From a virus (taxonomy: Duplodnaviria > Heunggongvirae > Uroviricota > Caudoviricetes), in IMG/VR virus record IMGVR_UViG_2690316086_000018: 52,397 nt of DNA. One strand, 5' to 3'. The notes beneath the pieces were generated by a model. The model saw only the letters and a list, made by a program, of their open reading frames with translations. It was not told the origin of the DNA and made no database searches. The number at the start of each line of letters is the position of its first letter. Position 1 is the first letter of the stretch. The position numbers were made by a program, and so were the translations under genes. Positions 12,627 to 19,332 of this stretch are shown here, one piece after another.

Positions 12627-13364
12627 TCATTCACTCTCTTTCAAACCAGTTTTAACTGTTTGTGGTTTTGGGTAAGGCTGGACTTTGAATAGCTTTGTGT
12701 TGAGGCGTTTTCTGGCCCTCTTGTTCAGAAACCGGATGTAACGAAACTGTCGGAACTTATGCACACTGGCTCTGTCGATATTAGCCCTCAGATGTTCACC
12801 TCGTTGTCCGCCTCGTTTAATGGCACTCCTGCAAATCTCGTGATACCACTCGCCATCAAGTTCATAGAATGTTGATTCATGGCTGCCTACATAATCAAAA
12901 TTGCTTGCCTGATACACGACACCAAGACAGCCACAACGCTCATCTGCAAACGACTGAACCCACTGTACCTGCGGATAAAGCTGCCTGATTAGCTTGAGCG
13001 CGTAACTGATTGCCCTTGATTCGGAGTTTCTCGGCATACAGTCATGCATCCATAGCCGGTTAAGCTCCATATATTCTCGGTTCTGCGTACCCGTTACGAC
13101 GCGTGCACCACTGTTTGGGTTAAGGGCGTAACCCCATTGCATTACGCCAACAAGTTCCCGTTCTGAAAATATACCCAGATGAAGGTAGGAATTATTTACG
13201 AAACGGTGGCTGTAATGTTTATTGACGATAACCAGTCTGGCCAGCCAGCAACTTATTGTCTCAACCCGCAACTCACGGGAGCCATAACCAACGATATTGT
13301 CGTTATAGCGAATAAGTTCAGGCGTGCTGATGATACGGGATGTGACTTGCTTTCTGTTCCCCAC
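12627..13364 (-). CDS. mom: Mom-like DNA modification protein
   Basis: 245-aa ORF overlapping the 3' end of a Com-like gene, last gene before prophage end, GATC cluster upstream: the Mu com-mom arrangement. Confidence 0.6.
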
Positions 13365-13518
13365 GACAGGATTTCCTTGTGTATGTGGGGTGCTCTGTGG
13401 CGCTCGGAGATGTGATTTGATTGAGGGTTTTACAGCGCGGACATTTTACTTCCAGATAACTGAAACTGGCCCGTGCCAGTAGCTTATTGCAGTGTCGGCA
13501 CCGTATGTTTCGATACAT
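13318..13518 (-). CDS. com: Com-like zinc-finger translational activator of mom
   Basis: [15 protein letters not shown]...EVKCPRCK...EHPT closely matches remembered Mu Com; start taken at internal ATG. Confidence 0.7.
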
Positions 13519-13565
13519 GGCCGCATAACCTCCTGCTTTGTTGTTGATGCCTTTCTCATGCAATC

Positions 13566-13703
13566 GATCGACAAAAACGATCGATTCGATTTGTTTAATT
13601 GATACAACAAATAGATTTAAAAGTCATCAACAATGATTCAGGGCGGTGATTATTTACTTAAAGAAACGAAGAGTTAGGTGGTGAAAACGATCATAAAATG
13701 ATC
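13566..13703. promoter_or_regulatory. GATC cluster upstream of com-mom (probable Dam-dependent regulatory region)
   Basis: GATC at 13566, 13579, 13689, 13700 embedded in ATCGATCG-type motifs. Confidence 0.5.
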
Positions 13704-13924
13704 ATTTTATTGACTTTTTATACAGTGAAGGTAGGATCGCGCGTATATGTAGTATGTTTCAAATCAACAGGATACTACATAAAAGGGAAACCCAGCATAG
13801 CTGGAACTATGCTGGGTCAATCTGTAAAAACTTGCATCAATGCTTTACTTCGAGCTCGTGGCGTATCCTATGATATTCCCCGGTCTCCTGTAAAGCAGAG
13901 ATGCATAAAAAGGAGATCTTTATC

Positions 13925-14095
13925 ATGGATAAAGAGCCTGTTTGCCCTGCCTGTAAGACTCCCTTACAGCTCATCTATCGCCGTTCTCGATCTCAAAATG
14001 GCAAGACATACAAACCAAAAAATGCTTCCTGTTTCAGGATGCTGATATGTCCTGCCTGTTCTCCCCGGAGGGAAAATACACAAAACGTGCATTAA
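13925..14095 (+). CDS. small zinc-ribbon protein (CPAC...CPAC), possibly Ogr/Delta-like
   Basis: 56-aa ORF with strong aaaaggaga RBS; two CxxC pairs; divergent from com. Confidence 0.3.
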   Translation: MDKEPVCPACKTPLQLIYRRSRSQNGKTYKPKNASCFRMLICPACSPRRENTQNVH

Positions 14096-14133
14096 CAAAT
14101 TCACCCGGCAGGGAAACCTGCCGGTCGGTATTG

Positions 14134-14379
14134 TTACATCATAGTACCGTCAGTTCCGGGCTGAACCGGCTCTGGTTGCTCTACGGGTTGAGGCTCATTT
14201 TCCGTGCTGTTTTCAGCCGGAGAACGACCAACCATTCGGGCCAGCACTTCATCAACATATGCGTCGATTTGTGCCTCAAAATCCTTGCGAACCTGCGCCT
14301 TCAGCACGCGGTTCACTTCTTCAGAATAAAGTGCCTGTTTGACAAGCTCTTCAGTAACCGTGCCTTTAATCTCTGGCAT
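14134..14379 (-). CDS. hypothetical protein
   Basis: 81-aa ORF with aaggag RBS; acidic/Pro-rich C-terminus. Confidence 0.45.
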   Translation of the reverse strand: MPEIKGTVTEELVKQALYSEEVNRVLKAQVRKDFEAQIDAYVDEVLARMVGRSPAENSTENEPQPVEQPEPVQPGTDGTMM

Positions 14380-14414
14380 GAATATTCTCCTTTCCTTTTC
14401 TGGTTCACAAAAAA

Positions 14415-14594
14415 TTAAATCTGACCGGAGTCTTTCGGCTGCGGCATTACAGCACCGCTTTTTATCTTTTCCTCGGCAGCTGCATCAATTTTATTTCGAA
14501 AATAATTGCGAATAATTTTATAACCACCGCTGACAAGCAACAGACAACAAACCACCGTGCAGAAATACAGCAGGCAGACGTTTATATATGTCAT
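14415..14594 (-). CDS. small membrane protein, 59 aa (not in ORF track)
   Basis: hand translation MTYINVCLLYFCTVVCCLLLVSGGYKIIRNYF...; GAGG RBS; one N-terminal TM helix. Confidence 0.3.
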   Translation of the reverse strand: MTYINVCLLYFCTVVCCLLLVSGGYKIIRNYFRNKIDAAAEEKIKSGAVMPQPKDSGQI

Positions 14595-14651
14595 ATAAGC
14601 CTCACTCTTATTAACTGATGTTACAGCCGGATAAATTCCCGGCCGTCACGA

Positions 14652-16709
14652 TTATGCCGCAGGGGTATTAACCTCAAGGACAACGCTCTCAAAAGACACG
14701 CCATAAGTTGCCCCTTTGGTGACATCTGTCAGTGTCAGCGTATCTTTGGCAGGGGAAAGTGCATCTTTCACCATCTGGAATGCCTGGCCCGGAGTGCCAT
14801 CCAGCACAGGCGTTACCTGGGCACTTCCCGCCGTAAACTTCAGGACAAGTGTATGCCACTGGTTATTGTAGGCTCCAAATGATCCCAGTTTCGTATTCCC
14901 CCCTGTTTTATGGTGCATCAGATTTAACTGGCCGCCTGTTGTCTGGAGATAATACGCCATCAGGAACGGTGTGCCTGTACCACTCATGGTTACACCTTCC
15001 GGGACCGTATCGGTGTGGAGGTAAATACCCAGAGCAAACTGGCCTTCTTTTACTTCACCTGACAGACGGAATTTACAGGTCAACTGACCACCATGCTTCA
15101 GAAGTTCACCGGCTGCATCAGTTCCATGGGTAAGCGCCCAGGTTTTTCCGCTTTGTTTGGATACGGTCAACGCTTTACCTTCGTCCGTCAGCTGGATTGT
15201 ACCATCTGTAATTTTCCAGCCCTGAGCCGGGGCTTCTCCTGCTGATGCTTTAAGTGAAAGCAGCGTACGGAGTGACGGGGATGTCGGATGGGGGGACTCA
15301 CTGCCTCCTGGCTGACTACCTGTCGGCGCTTCCGGTTTCCCACCCGGCGCGGGCTGAGGCAGGGCTTCACCATCAGGGGCCACACCGGCAATAAATGCAG
15401 AGGTCAGACCTGCATATTTAAGAATTGCTGATGCAAAACGATCTGAGACCAGAAAACGGCGCGCCCAGGAGCTAAAATGGGTTGCCCTGGATGCTGTTGT
15501 CCAGTTGCCATCTCCCCGTGATTCCGCACCATAATACCCGGCAGAAGCGATATCCGGGTCGTGCTCCGGCAGGTTGGTCGCGGTTTTATTACCGAACTCA
15601 TCGTGCATCAGTGGAACAAAGTGAATGTTCTCGGAAGCCCGGTTTTTATATCCGCTATAAATGGTTTCATATGCCGCCGGGTTCTTCTCTTTCCAGTCAT
15701 AGGTTGTGTCACCACATAACCACGGCACACTGTCTGATGAACCACCAATACACTGACCGGAGAAAGCACCAAGATCCGCACGGAATTTTTTCACCATCGC
15801 AGTAAACTGGGCACCATGCTGGGCCGGGGTCGCTTTAAGGTCTCCTTCCCCCTGAATCCATACGACAGATAACAGCACATTCTTTGGATTCGCCTCAAGT
15901 GCCGCTTTAGTTCGACTGACAAGATCCTGATACAGTGGGGTATCCACTCCCCAGCGTAGTGACGCCTCGGCTGCACCACTTGCCGGATCGAATGAGCCAA
16001 CTGCGCCGGTTGTAAAAGCAGAGCCGCCACGGGCACAGGGAACCAGTAAAATCCCGGCATCAGCAGGAATCACCGGTAATACTTTTTTCGCAATATGAAG
16101 TCCCTGCCCCACACAACCATACTGCCCTTTTTTCAGGTCTGCTTTTGGATGGTTCAGCAGACTCATATTCTGAACATCATGAAGGCAGTGATCTGCTGGA
16201 ATGATTTCATTGTATTTGCAGGGAATACCTCCGGGGGTTTGTGTATTCCTGCGTGCCAGCTGCATAATACGTGGATCAGGACGATCATAAGAATCCGGAA
16301 GGGGCAACCCTTCACCATAAGATGAAGCATTGGACTGGCCGGCTATAACAATCACGTAATACCAGGAAGGGGAGCTGGAAGCCGTTTCATTTCCTGCCGG
16401 ACGGGTATGTGTTTCTGCATTATCCCAGTCTGACGGTTCAGTAGTACCGGCAACATCAGCACTTAACGGAATGACAGCACCAATACCCGCTCCGGTAATT
16501 TCCACGTTCGGATCACCGGATACTGGCCTTACCCACAGGCAATCCTGTGTATTAAAACTGATGAGACAGTCAGCAAATGTCATTCCTCCTTTCGTTTCAG
16601 CAGGAGGAAAGGGAGCCTCAAGAAATGCCGCTGTACCACCGGAAACTTTAACGGTAAAGTTTCCGGGCATTGATGATAGTTGAACCCATTTGGACGTCAT
16701 AATATTCAT
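14652..16709 (-). CDS. SGNH/SASA-type carbohydrate esterase-domain protein with C-terminal beta-sandwich-like domain (prophage cargo gene)
   Basis: 685-aa ORF with VIVIAGQSNASSYGEG (GQSN serine motif of sialate-O-acetylesterase-like SGNH hydrolases); lies between gin and com-mom. Confidence 0.6.
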   Translation of the reverse strand: MNIMTSKWVQLSSMPGNFTVKVSGGTAAFLEAPFPPAETKGGMTFADCLISFNTQDCLWVRPVSGDPNVEITGAGIGAVIPLSADVAGTTEPSDWDNAETHTRPAGNETASSSPSWYYVIVIAGQSNASSYGEGLPLPDSYDRPDPRIMQLARRNTQTPGGIPCKYNEIIPADHCLHDVQNMSLLNHPKADLKKGQYGCVGQGLHIAKKVLPVIPADAGILLVPCARGGSAFTTGAVGSFDPASGAAEASLRWGVDTPLYQDLVSRTKAALEANPKNVLLSVVWIQGEGDLKATPAQHGAQFTAMVKKFRADLGAFSGQCIGGSSDSVPWLCGDTTYDWKEKNPAAYETIYSGYKNRASENIHFVPLMHDEFGNKTATNLPEHDPDIASAGYYGAESRGDGNWTTASRATHFSSWARRFLVSDRFASAILKYAGLTSAFIAGVAPDGEALPQPAPGGKPEAPTGSQPGGSESPHPTSPSLRTLLSLKASAGEAPAQGWKITDGTIQLTDEGKALTVSKQSGKTWALTHGTDAAGELLKHGGQLTCKFRLSGEVKEGQFALGIYLHTDTVPEGVTMSGTGTPFLMAYYLQTTGGQLNLMHHKTGGNTKLGSFGAYNNQWHTLVLKFTAGSAQVTPVLDGTPGQAFQMVKDALSPAKDTLTLTDVTKGATYGVSFESVVLEVNTPAA

Positions 16710-16799: not shown

Positions 16800-17360
16800 T
16801 TATTTTTCCGAAACGCTCGCAGGATAATAACGATAAAGGGTTGAAAGGCCGATATCAAAAATAAGTGCCACCTGTCTTCGACTGACACCCCCGGCCAGTA
16901 AACGCCCGACCTGCTCGTATTGTTCCTGCGTGAGACGACGGGGTCTGCCGCCGGTTCGTCCCCTTTCACGGGCAGCTGCAAGACCAGCCCGTGTCCGTTC
17001 GACAATTAATTCACGCTCCATTTCTGCCAGCGCACCCATTATGTGAAAAAAGAAGCGCCCCATGGGGGTTGACGTATCAATGTTGTCAGTAAGACTACGA
17101 AAATTTATCCCCTGTTGCTGTAATTCATCTGTCAGCGCAACAAGGTGGCGCATACTGCGCCCCAGCCTGTCCAGTTTCCAGACCATCAGTGTGTCACCGG
17201 GTTTTAGTTTCTTCAGTGCCCGCTTCAGTCCCGGCCGCTGTGTCGTTTTACCACTCATTTTGTCTTCAAAAATCTGCTCACATCCTGCACATTCCAGCGC
17301 ATTTCTTTGTAAACCGGTGTTCTGGTCATTTGTTGATACGCGTATATAGCCAATCAGCAT
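16800..17360 (-). CDS. gin: Gin-type serine DNA invertase
   Basis: MLIGYIRVSTNDQNTGLQRNAL...DRLGRSM...; near-identical in pattern to Mu Gin/Hin/Cin. Confidence 0.9.
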   Translation of the reverse strand: MLIGYIRVSTNDQNTGLQRNALECAGCEQIFEDKMSGKTTQRPGLKRALKKLKPGDTLMVWKLDRLGRSMRHLVALTDELQQQGINFRSLTDNIDTSTPMGRFFFHIMGALAEMERELIVERTRAGLAAARERGRTGGRPRRLTQEQYEQVGRLLAGGVSRRQVALIFDIGLSTLYRYYPASVSEK

Positions 17361-17414
17361 GTATTTACCTTCCTTAAAAAGAGGTGGAAAGGCCTTTTAA
17401 AGCAGATATACGGC

Positions 17415-17440
17415 ATCCCTGAAACCTCGGTTTACGGGAT
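17415..17440. other. gix-like invertase crossover site (left)
   Basis: ATCCCTGAAACCTCGGTTTACGGGAT; core AAACCTCGGTTTAC matches the Mu gix core. Confidence 0.7.
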
Positions 17441-17785
17441 ACTGTAAACAGGGCCGCGAATGCCCTGCCATCGAACGGAACGGCTGTTGCAGCGAATAAA
17501 CTCGCCACTCCAAGAAATATTAATGGTGTCCCATTTGACGGAACGCAGGATATAAATATTACATCGGGGATGACGCAGTCTGTGGCTGACTCACGTTATG
17601 TTCAAAGCATTCGAAGAGGTTCAAGGTCAACGATTGGAATGCAATATAATATTTTTGAAGTTCCTGACGGATGCGTACTTACAGGGCTTGATGTCGCTGG
17701 TGATGGTAATGCAACGGTAACCGCATATTATCGACCTGTTCAGTTTCTGATAGATGGTTCGTGGAAAACAGCTTCCAGCGCATAA
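17423..17785 (+). CDS. alternative tail-fibre C-terminal segment (promoterless in current orientation)
   Basis: in-frame translation from the gix site gives NLGLRDTVNRAANALPS...RPVQFLIDGSWKTASSA, homologous to residues ~176-303 of fibre 18421-19332. Confidence 0.6.
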   Translation, partial: NLGLRDTVNRAANALPSNGTAVAANKLATPRNINGVPFDGTQDINITSGMTQSVADSRYVQSIRRGSRSTIGMQYNIFEVPDGCVLTGLDVAGDGNATVTAYYRPVQFLIDGSWKTASSA

Positions 17786-17864
17786 AAGTGCAGTAGTTCA
17801 AAAAACAGATTATCTGAATAAATATATGATGATTTTGTCTTTTCAACAAAAACAAGGTGAAATA

Positions 17865-18386
17865 ATGGAGCTTATTAACGTAAAACGATATTACCCGGAA
17901 CACAAACCCTATGGTGAGGATGTTCAGTATTTCCAGAGTGAGGACGGAAGGGATTTTTATGAATCTATCCCGCTTTTCACAAAGAAATACAAACTCTGTA
18001 TTTCGCCTGTAACGGGTATTATCTGCTCTGTTGCTGAAGATGTCTCTGCTTTATATCCGGCAGGTTTTACTGTTGTTGAAGTGGACGAACTGCCGGAAGG
18101 TGTGAATATTGACGGTAACTGGCAGTGTTCTGATGGCCTGATATCAAAGGTGCCGGTAAACTGGAAGACGGTTGCTGAAAAGCGTCGCTCATCGCTGCTC
18201 CAGGAAGCCAACGAAACCGTGGATGACTGGAAAACAGAATTAAAACTGGACATGATTAGCGATGAAAATAAATTACAGCTGACGCGCTGGATGGCGTATA
18301 TCCGACAGCTTAAAGAAATGCACTTTAATGATATTGCCAGTGAGGGGCATTACCAGGCGATTCCCTGGCCGGAAAAACCGGAATAA
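17865..18386 (+). CDS. tail fibre assembly protein (chaperone)
   Basis: MELINVKRYYPE...QLTRWMAYIRQLKEM...WPEKPE typical Tfa family; aaggtga RBS; track ORF starts at 17754. Confidence 0.85.
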   Translation: MELINVKRYYPEHKPYGEDVQYFQSEDGRDFYESIPLFTKKYKLCISPVTGIICSVAEDVSALYPAGFTVVEVDELPEGVNIDGNWQCSDGLISKVPVNWKTVAEKRRSSLLQEANETVDDWKTELKLDMISDENKLQLTRWMAYIRQLKEMHFNDIASEGHYQAIPWPEKPE

Positions 18387-18391
18387 TTCAG

Positions 18392-18415
18392 AGGGTGCAT
18401 TCAGCACCCTTTTCT
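18392..18415 (+). terminator. rho-independent terminator after tfa
   Basis: agggtgc-attca-gcaccct hairpin followed by TTTT. Confidence 0.55.
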
Positions 18416-18420
18416 GTGGT

Positions 18421-19332
18421 TTACACTGAACTTACCGTTCTCCAGGCATTATTAATATAAATCTGAACCGGGCGATAATAGACCCCACCGATATTGTCCG
18501 CAGACCGGGAGCCGGTTTCCTGCACGTTAATACCGGAAAGCATACAACCGGAAGGTGCGCTGTAATTCCATGATATTTCATTGCCTCCGGGTGAATGATA
18601 GCTCTGTGCTCCAAGCTGAACATTCTGTACATACCGGCCATCTGCGGTTGACTGCGTCATTCCTGACGTGATGTTGATATCCTGCGTTCCGTCAAAAGGA
18701 ACGCCATTAATATTTCTTGGGGTGGCGAGTCTGTTTGCTGCCACGGCGGTTCCACCCGATGGCAGGGCATCAGCAGCCTTATTTACCGTTTCCCGTAAAC
18801 CGACGTTATCGATAAAAGCGCCTTTATCCGGAATGTCTGCGCCGTTCTGCTCCCTGCGCAGGTAACGGTTATCACCTTCGCTTTTGCTGTAAACATCCAG
18901 ATTATTACGGGCGGTTCCCGCATTCTCCAGGTCGGCAAGGTTCTGATCCTTCGCCAGAGCATTAACGTCACCGGGACCAAGACTGTTTTTTGTGGCAAGC
19001 GCCCCAAGACCAAGATAACCACGGGCAAGACGCTGGGCTTCCGCACCGGCATCAGCAATTTCTTTCAGGTTGTTTTTCCGGGAAAAGGCATTCGCAGCGA
19101 TAATGGCTTTAATGGACAGCGTAAGCTGGTTTAACTGCGCCTTATCCGGCTGAATACTGGCTTCAGCCAGAATATTCAGCAGTTCGGCCTGGAGAATATT
19201 CAGCCAGTCCTGACCAATCCAGCTGATACCTTTTTGTCCGTCACCTTCGGTAAACCAGGTGGTGGTATTACTCTGCGCCGGTGCCAGCGCAGGCATATTC
19301 GCCACGCCGGAATTATTATCAACATGAAACAT
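18421..19332 (-). CDS. tail fibre protein (constant N-part plus currently attached variable C-part)
   Basis: 303 aa; gix site inside the gene at codons ~176-184 (IDNVGLRETV). Confidence 0.8.
   Translation of the reverse strand: MFHVDNNSGVANMPALAPAQSNTTTWFTEGDGQKGISWIGQDWLNILQAELLNILAEASIQPDKAQLNQLTLSIKAIIAANAFSRKNNLKEIADAGAEAQRLARGYLGLGALATKNSLGPGDVNALAKDQNLADLENAGTARNNLDVYSKSEGDNRYLRREQNGADIPDKGAFIDNVGLRETVNKAADALPSGGTAVAANRLATPRNINGVPFDGTQDINITSGMTQSTADGRYVQNVQLGAQSYHSPGGNEISWNYSAPSGCMLSGINVQETGSRSADNIGGVYYRPVQIYINNAWRTVSSV
18790..18815. other. gix-like invertase crossover site (right, inside tail-fibre gene)
   Basis: TTCCCGTAAACCGACGTTATCGATAA, ~22/26 identical to remembered Mu gix TTCCTGTAAACCGAGGTTTTGGATAA. 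Confidence 0.75.

Follow-up and report, generated by a model that had tools for sequence, protein, structure and literature searches.

Several site-specific switches in phages and bacteria are built from the same few parts. By description, the Cin/cix system of the P1 C segment, the Pin system of the e14 P segment and the Hin/hix system of Salmonella each combine a small serine invertase with 26-bp sites and a 2-bp core. P1 and e14 carry two tfa genes each, and Hin controls a promoter, not a coding exchange. By description too, alternative fibre C-termini are common to the Cin and Pin switches and not to Hin (for e14, PMC4272514). The closest described system is the G segment of phage Mu, with its invertase Gin, its gix sites and the genes S, U, U′ and S′. 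In a Mu prophage of the enteropathogenic strain EPEC E2348/69, inversion has been confirmed by sequencing and PCR (Goldberg et al., 2014; PMC4272514). The prophage Sp18 is described as carrying an invertible host-specificity region whose genes are unlike those of Mu (Asadulghani et al., 2009; PMC2669165). In the open-access literature searched, no description was found of Sp18-type site sequences, of the crossover, of a single tfa or of core polymorphism.

Judged by its sequence, the stretch of DNA analysed here (52,397 nucleotides, the window) is an Sp18-type Mu-like prophage of EHEC. A 2.7-kb stretch used for comparison is 100% identical to several O157/STEC chromosomes, and Sp18 of E. coli O157:H7 Sakai (ECs_4989-ECs_4992) is the same element, with the same gene order and orientation. 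There the genes are annotated as DNA-invertase, tail fiber, tail fiber assembly protein and tail fiber protein fragment. Sakai Sp18 differs from the window in its recombination cores, which are TT/TT instead of TC/TC. No recognisable prophage ends were found at the positions predicted by collinearity with the Sakai Sp18 coordinates. Between 16800 and 19332 the late phage genes run on the minus strand, and the fibre gene is preceded by homologues of Mu gp48 (Pfam Phage_Mu_Gp48) and gp47 (Baseplate_J); unlike Mu, the window has cargo genes between gin and com/mom. The sequence evidence makes it highly probable that this region is the counterpart of the G segment in an Sp18-type Mu-like prophage, where a Gin-type inversion swaps the tips of the tail fibre. 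The mechanism is the classical Gin-type inversion and an invertible region in Sp18 is already in the literature, so that the finding is real but ordinary. Two of its features appear to be undescribed, namely a single tfa for two tips and a 2-bp core that varies among natural copies.

The DNA invertase gene (16800..17360, minus strand) encodes a Gin homologue of 186 aa with the Pfam domains Resolvase (1.4e-51) and HTH_7. Like the other members of the Din family, this is a small serine recombinase with a catalytic N-terminal domain and a C-terminal helix-turn-helix. Its identity to Mu Gin is 74.7% over 182 aa, and it aligns end to end with the Mu Gin structures 3UJ3 and 4M6F (E = 2e-91). The protein is intact, with the catalytic S9 present and R42 also conserved. 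Residues uniquely conserved in Fis/enhancer-dependent invertases have been defined in Hin as K47, K/R48 and K/R51 of helix B and Q151, R154 and L155 of the first helix of the DNA-binding domain (McLean et al., 2013; PMC3798978). All of them are present in the window's invertase, which keeps K46, R47, K50, Q150, R153 and L154 (Gin numbering). As in Mu, the gene lies just outside the invertible segment and its 5′ end points at it. Members of the Din family use a recombinational enhancer that holds two Fis sites near the 5′ end of the invertase gene, in Mu within the start of gin, and their inversion depends on host Fis and negative supercoiling. Compared in blocks of 30 nt, the first 120 nt of the window's gene show 73-87% identity to Mu gin. 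When an enhancer was sought as an excess of synonymous conservation against Mu gin, the difference between the first 35 codons (18/30, 60%) and the remainder (46/101, 46%) was non-significant (p = 0.21).

The two recombination sites lie at 17415-17440 and 18790-18815, exact to the base where an earlier reading made from the sequence alone (the sequence-only reading) had placed a pair of inverted 26-bp sites. The gin-side site reads ATCCCTGAAACC-TC-GGTTTACGGGAT, while the fibre-side site, inside the fibre ORF, reads TTATCGATAACG-TC-GGTTTACGGGAA as the reverse complement. The sites are inverted relative to each other and consist of imperfect 12-bp half-sites around an identical, non-palindromic 2-bp core, which is the arrangement of Din-family sites. 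The Mu gix reference, read from record AF083977 (TTATCCAAAACCTCGGTTTACAGGAA), has the halves TTATCCAAAACC-TC-GGTTTACAGGAA and an inverted partner. Direct alignment to this record gives 19/26 for the gin-side and 22/26 for the fibre-side site; the TC core of both is that of Mu gix, in agreement with the match that the sequence-only reading had asserted. The outer half of the gin-side site is degenerate (7/12 against Mu gix). A search of the window with the Mu gix 26-mer at up to 3 mismatches returned no match, as the true sites carry 4 and 7 mismatches to it. A 17-mer common to both sites, AACSTCGGTTTACGGGA, stands on opposite strands and occurs nowhere else in the 52-kb window; shuffles give a chance expectation of 0.01 for such a shared pair. 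A shufflon with a third crossover site was also considered and set aside, as a relaxed pattern run over the 52-kb window gave weak, unpaired matches only.

The fibre-side site corresponds to codons 173-181 (F-I-D-N-V-G-L-R-E) of the fibre ORF, and the crossover dinucleotide falls in codon V177. The earlier claim that this site marks the boundary between the constant and variable parts of the fibre stands. A gix site is embedded in the Mu fibre gene at the homologous position (Mu ...FIQNLGLQETVNRA against FIDNVGLRETVNKA in the window). The inverted repeat is longer than the sites themselves. Its arms cover 182 nt (17423-17604 and 18626-18807) and are 79% complementary, compared with the 34 bp reported for Mu and SfMu (PMC4406740). 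The extra length reflects the near identity of the two variable parts over their first ~50 codons.

The invertible segment, counted from core dinucleotide to core dinucleotide, measures 1377 bp (17427..18803); its limits come from mapped breakpoints and from an in-silico inversion that matches 23 complete genomes. At 1.38 kb it is shorter than the 3.06-kb segment of Mu. The tail-fibre gene as now assembled (18421..19332, minus strand, 303 aa) matches phrog_1833 over its full length and is constant to codon ~177, after which tip A begins. The alternative C-terminus, tip B, lies silent on the plus strand, as the sequence-only reading had it, in a frame that is open from the site onwards (17423..17785; 120 codons without a start of their own; phrog_1833/2901 tail fibre). 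As in a G segment, two opposed alternative C-termini are thus combined with one constant N-terminal part outside the segment. Inversion exchanges the current C-terminal part of 126 aa for an alternative of 118 aa. The same reading had put the exchanged tip at 75 aa, a figure that describes the divergent portion and falls short of the whole swapped part: strong divergence is confined to the last ~75 aa of the current tip and the last ~67 aa of the alternative. The tips are homologous to each other, at 58% over the swapped part and much less in the last 70 residues. In orientation A, that of the window, the fibre has 303 aa and ends in ...YINNAWRTVSSV, and in orientation B it has 295 aa and ends in ...LIDGSWKTASSA. 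RefSeq WP_032213164.1 (strain 2-6-2, 295 aa) and the B fibre predicted from the window differ by one residue, and both fusion proteins, constant part with tip A and constant part with tip B, are annotated in natural genomes.

Pfam assigns no domain to the fibre or to tip B, and searches of PHROGs and of PDB sequences were informative. Residues 1-198 of the fibre align with Mu S 1-191, including the site-encoded motif FI(D/Q)N(V/L)GL(R/Q)ETVN, and residues 228-302 align with the C-terminal domain of Mu S, 434-503 (PDB 5YVQ_A, an entry that also contains the chaperone U). With its constant part and its extreme C-terminal domain both aligning with Mu S, the fibre is a Mu S cut short, without the long middle stretch of the variable part. 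The variable parts number 126 and 118 aa in the window and more than 330 aa in Mu, and the middle of Mu Sv is missing. The nearest phage relatives of tip A are found in E. coli phage Rac-SA53 (65%), among P2-like H proteins and in SfMu S′. Those of tip B are found in Hafnia phage yong1 (57%) and then in Mu S. A hint on host range may be read from this list, in that the nearest relatives of tip A belong to E. coli/Shigella phages and that of tip B to the Hafnia phage yong1.

Both orientations exist in nature. The window sequence and its in-silico inversion of 17427-18803 were compared with 5,426 complete E. coli genomes, of which 182 match the window orientation (A) and 23 match the inverted form (B) as one collinear full-length piece, with a best identity of 99.3%. 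The ratio of A to B is thus about 89:11, against the 1:1 expected of a freely equilibrating switch. In strain 8479 the prophage is present twice, on the chromosome and on a 167-kb plasmid, and over 5.7 kb these copies differ only by an exact inversion. Strain SMN197SH3 has one copy in each orientation. Two outcomes had been named in advance as fatal to the proposal of the sequence-only reading: sites absent on exact alignment, or an inactivated invertase with only one orientation ever observed. Both sites are present on exact alignment, the 186-aa invertase is intact with its S9, and public genomes contain both orientations with junctions at the predicted crossover.

The breakpoints place the exchange at the core. 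In strain 8479 the breakpoint can lie anywhere in a perfect repeat of 28 bp that has the TC as its outer edge. The window's own site sequences recur in four flipped loci (strain 2-6-2, copy b of SMN197SH3, FORC_044 and ECP19-198), and in 4/4 of these the exchange falls within 13 bp, TCGGTTTACGGGA, starting at the central TC. On the outside this interval is limited by the base adjoining the core, which is a C in one site and a G in the other. The junctions in the four loci join the outer half of the gin-side site to the inner flank of the fibre-side site, and the converse. Genome comparison thus locates strand exchange at the central dinucleotide on two grounds, the 13-bp bound and the co-variation of the cores described below. 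These data also bear on the idea that the two orientations are produced by RecA-dependent recombination of homologous sequences, namely the imperfect inverted repeats of 182 nt, and not by a site-specific reaction, an idea to which we give hardly any credence. The repeats are indeed long and 79% identical, and recombination at repeats is known from E. coli O157 prophages (PMC7430833). However, in the inspected flipped loci with informative flanks the exchange is always inside 13 bp from the TC core, the two cores co-vary, and an intact Gin homologue adjoins the sites. Homologous recombination would have very little sequence to work with in 13 bp, or in the 28 bp of the 8479 lineage. Among the inspected flipped loci with informative flanks, no exchange was found elsewhere in the 182-nt homology, which argues against ordinary homologous recombination.

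Site-specific inversion of the Gin type is therefore preferred, and onto the observed anatomy, intact parts, two natural orientations and exchange position the following course of events would be placed. The Gin-family serine invertase (16800-17360) would bind both 26-bp sites and cut each at the central TC with a 2-nt stagger; rejoining after a 180-degree rotation of subunits would leave 17427-18803 inverted. In orientation A the late operon would consist of gp47, gp48 and the fibre constant part with tip A (303 aa). In orientation B it would run through the fibre constant part with tip B (295 aa) to tfa and a terminator. A lysogenic population would in this way release virions with two different receptor-binding tips. 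Dependence on Fis and an enhancer is inferred, as is the rate of switching. From the homology to the fibre tips of Mu S/S′ and P2 H, we infer that the two tips may confer different host ranges.

The arrangement of the chaperone gene departs from the Mu plan. The window has only one tail-fibre assembly gene, tfa (17865..18386, plus strand, 173 aa; Pfam Caudo_TAP 5e-18; phrog_136), which is homologous to Mu U (PDB 5YVQ_B). A tblastn search of the window for a second copy found none, whereas Mu has two, U and U′, so that each tip in a G segment has an assembly gene of its own; here the single tfa stands behind tip B. The gene is tail-to-tail with the fibre gene, and the open frame of tip B lies upstream of it. 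A hairpin followed by a T-run (18390..18412, plus strand) comes after tfa and is terminator-like only when read in the tfa direction. With the segment in orientation A, tfa lies antisense to the late operon. With the segment in B, it follows the fibre gene on the same strand and is succeeded by the terminator-like hairpin, and the earlier statement that inversion brings the only tfa into the fibre operon is thus confirmed. In a promoter scan for tfa in orientation A, no sigma-70-like site was found upstream and the total number of sites was not above that in shuffles. The same one-tfa layout is present in the diverged relatives UTME-3 and STEC2018-553. The nearest phage homologue of tfa (52.6%) belongs to Rac-SA53, where it comes immediately after the A-like tip.

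Going by homology, tip A would be expected to require a chaperone, and in orientation A the operon contains none. Three readings of this oddity can be offered: tfa might be expressed in both orientations via an undetected signal, tip A might fold without tfa, or A-phase virions might lack working fibres. The last of these fits poorly, because orientation A predominates. It would turn the inversion into an ON/OFF switch for functional fibres in place of a choice between two host ranges, as a chaperone would be supplied in cis only in B and A virions would carry misfolded fibres or none. We regard such a switch as unlikely, even with several points in its favour. There is one tfa, antisense to the late operon in A and with no promoter-like site upstream. 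In other phages, tips of the A type are followed by tfa, as in Rac-SA53 (whose fibre lies next to the nearest tfa homologue), P2 H and SfMu S′. Tip A is also homologous to the Mu S domain that was co-crystallised with chaperone U (PDB 5YVQ). However, orientation A is the commoner one (182 against 23), and its tip ORF is intact and conserved, without decay. Apparently A-locked alleles are present in strains labelled O157, O26 and O103, a hint that phage in this phase is still spreading. Furthermore, contractile-tailed Mu-like particles in Sakai cultures have been attributed to Sp18, whose assembled genome is in orientation A, in a study that did not assay infectivity (Asadulghani et al., PMC2669165).

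The 2-bp core itself is polymorphic among natural copies. Core states were obtained from counts by identity band together with 24 loci inspected individually, out of ~205 loci; the counts are not phylogenetically independent and come from a collection that holds E. coli only, so that a phage locked in B in another genus would go unseen. The window and many other copies have TC/TC cores. TT/TT cores are found in Sakai Sp18 and E2855 in orientation A, and in Z1323MEC0002 and 2014C-3050 in orientation B. Mixed pairs occur as well, with TT on the gin side and TC on the fibre side in 13E0780, and the reverse in FRIK804 and strain 113. In E2865 and H2495 the gin side has a 3-nt TTC and the fibre side TT. 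By identity-band count, the fibre side in orientation A has a TT core in 90 records, and the gin side in orientation A has TT in 24 and TC in 76; by subtraction, roughly 57-64 further gin-side records would be TTC. With 90 TT cores on the fibre side against 24 on the gin side, at least 66 orientation-A loci must have unmatched cores. The cores are matched in 12/12 of the orientation-B loci inspected.

In serine invertases unmatched cores block productive inversion, and rare events carry a core from one site to the other. Iida and Hiestand-Nauer are said to have reported such localized conversion experimentally for P1 Cin in 1986. The core states seen here agree with this rule. Going by their core sequences, the orientation-A loci with unmatched cores, at least 66 in number, are probably locked. 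The co-variation of the two cores is what exchange within a 2-bp overlap predicts, and it supports TC as the true crossover. A large fraction of copies is probably fixed in A, which may also account for the orientation bias of roughly 9:1. It could be asked whether the window's own copy is frozen in the same manner, with the sequence present and flipping lost. Many natural copies do appear locked (at least 66 A loci with TT at the fibre side only, and roughly 57-64 with a seemingly 3-nt TTC on the gin side). The window, in contrast, has matched TC/TC cores with the normal 2-bp spacing and an intact invertase, and its site sequences are the same as in four flipped genomes, which makes a frozen copy very improbable. 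A switch still able to flip is the reading that we retain for the window.

A broader interpretation is put forward tentatively, as a possibility open to considerable doubt. The Sp18-type cassette would be a reduced, asymmetric Mu G segment, with one chaperone that serves, or fails to serve, both tips, and with a crossover core that is evolving in the wild. Recombination between TC and TT cores would spread core mutations from site to site by localized conversion, and occasional dead ends, mixed or TTC, would lock the orientation that infects E. coli. If this is true, EHEC genomes are a natural record of a phase-variable host-range switch becoming fixed to a single specificity. Both the asymmetry in chaperone supply and the locked alleles found in nature are modest points of specialist interest. 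Those who use Sp18-type phages or fibres, in host-range engineering or in work on Mu-like transposition in STEC, would have to reckon with two tips and one chaperone. The core-dinucleotide polymorphism, for its part, allows the 2-bp-overlap rule of serine invertases to be tested cheaply at the level of populations.

The locus also gives rise to annotation artefacts in genomes. The silent tip is entered as a ‘tail fiber protein’ of 67 aa, and some flipped genomes have no gene call for the intact fibre.

The two-base crossover core at the centre of each recombination site (17427-17428 and 18802-18803) is polymorphic across natural Sp18-type prophages (loci L013, L014 and L018-L024). The states found in such prophages are TC/TC, TT/TT in both orientations, and both mixed combinations, and the gin-side site of some carries a three-nucleotide TTC core. 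Cores are unmatched in at least 66 loci in orientation A, that of the window, and these loci are probably phase-locked. All 12 of the orientation-B (flipped) loci inspected have matched cores.

In one lineage (L001, L003-L005 and L011), the gin-side site contains an additional A in its outer half-site (TGAAAACC versus TGAAACC), accompanied by a 28-bp perfect inner repeat. Inversion still occurs in this lineage, as is evident from the pair of oppositely oriented prophages in strain 8479 (L003/L004). Two or more Mu-like prophage copies with opposite segment orientations also occur in SMN197SH3 (L007/L008) and Z869 (database matches H20 and H56). One of the copies in 8479 lies on a 167-kb plasmid, and L007 is a truncated copy that adjoins dusA. 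A 94%-identical copy of the Mu-like element is present in phage records LC727881.1 and LC727895.1, annotated as an insertion within the genomes of Stx2c- and Stx1a-converting phages.

The segment encodes two fibre tips and a single tail-fibre assembly gene, tfa (17865-18386 versus 18421-18803), which runs antisense to the late operon when the segment is in orientation A, the commoner of the two. The closest phage homologue of tfa, tail2 of Rac-SA53, immediately follows an A-type tip, not a B-type one.

Several annotations around 17374-17785 (loci L002, L007, L015 and L016) are artefacts. A 67-aa ‘tail fiber protein’, WP_010917875.1, is the name given to the silent tip, and a ‘hypothetical protein’ has been called from an antisense ORF. 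The intact 295-aa fibre ORF is left uncalled in several flipped genomes.

The interval between the invertase gene and the com and mom homologues (13318-13563 and 12627-13364, minus strand; region 12627-16709) holds a 685-aa SASA/DUF6645 esterase-like ORF (14652-16709). DUF1378 and DUF826 genes are also placed in this interval by the RefSeq annotation of a locus that showed no differences across the part compared. Similar cargo, of the SASA/DUF6645, DUF1378 and DUF826 kind, is known from Stx phages, in their late regions.
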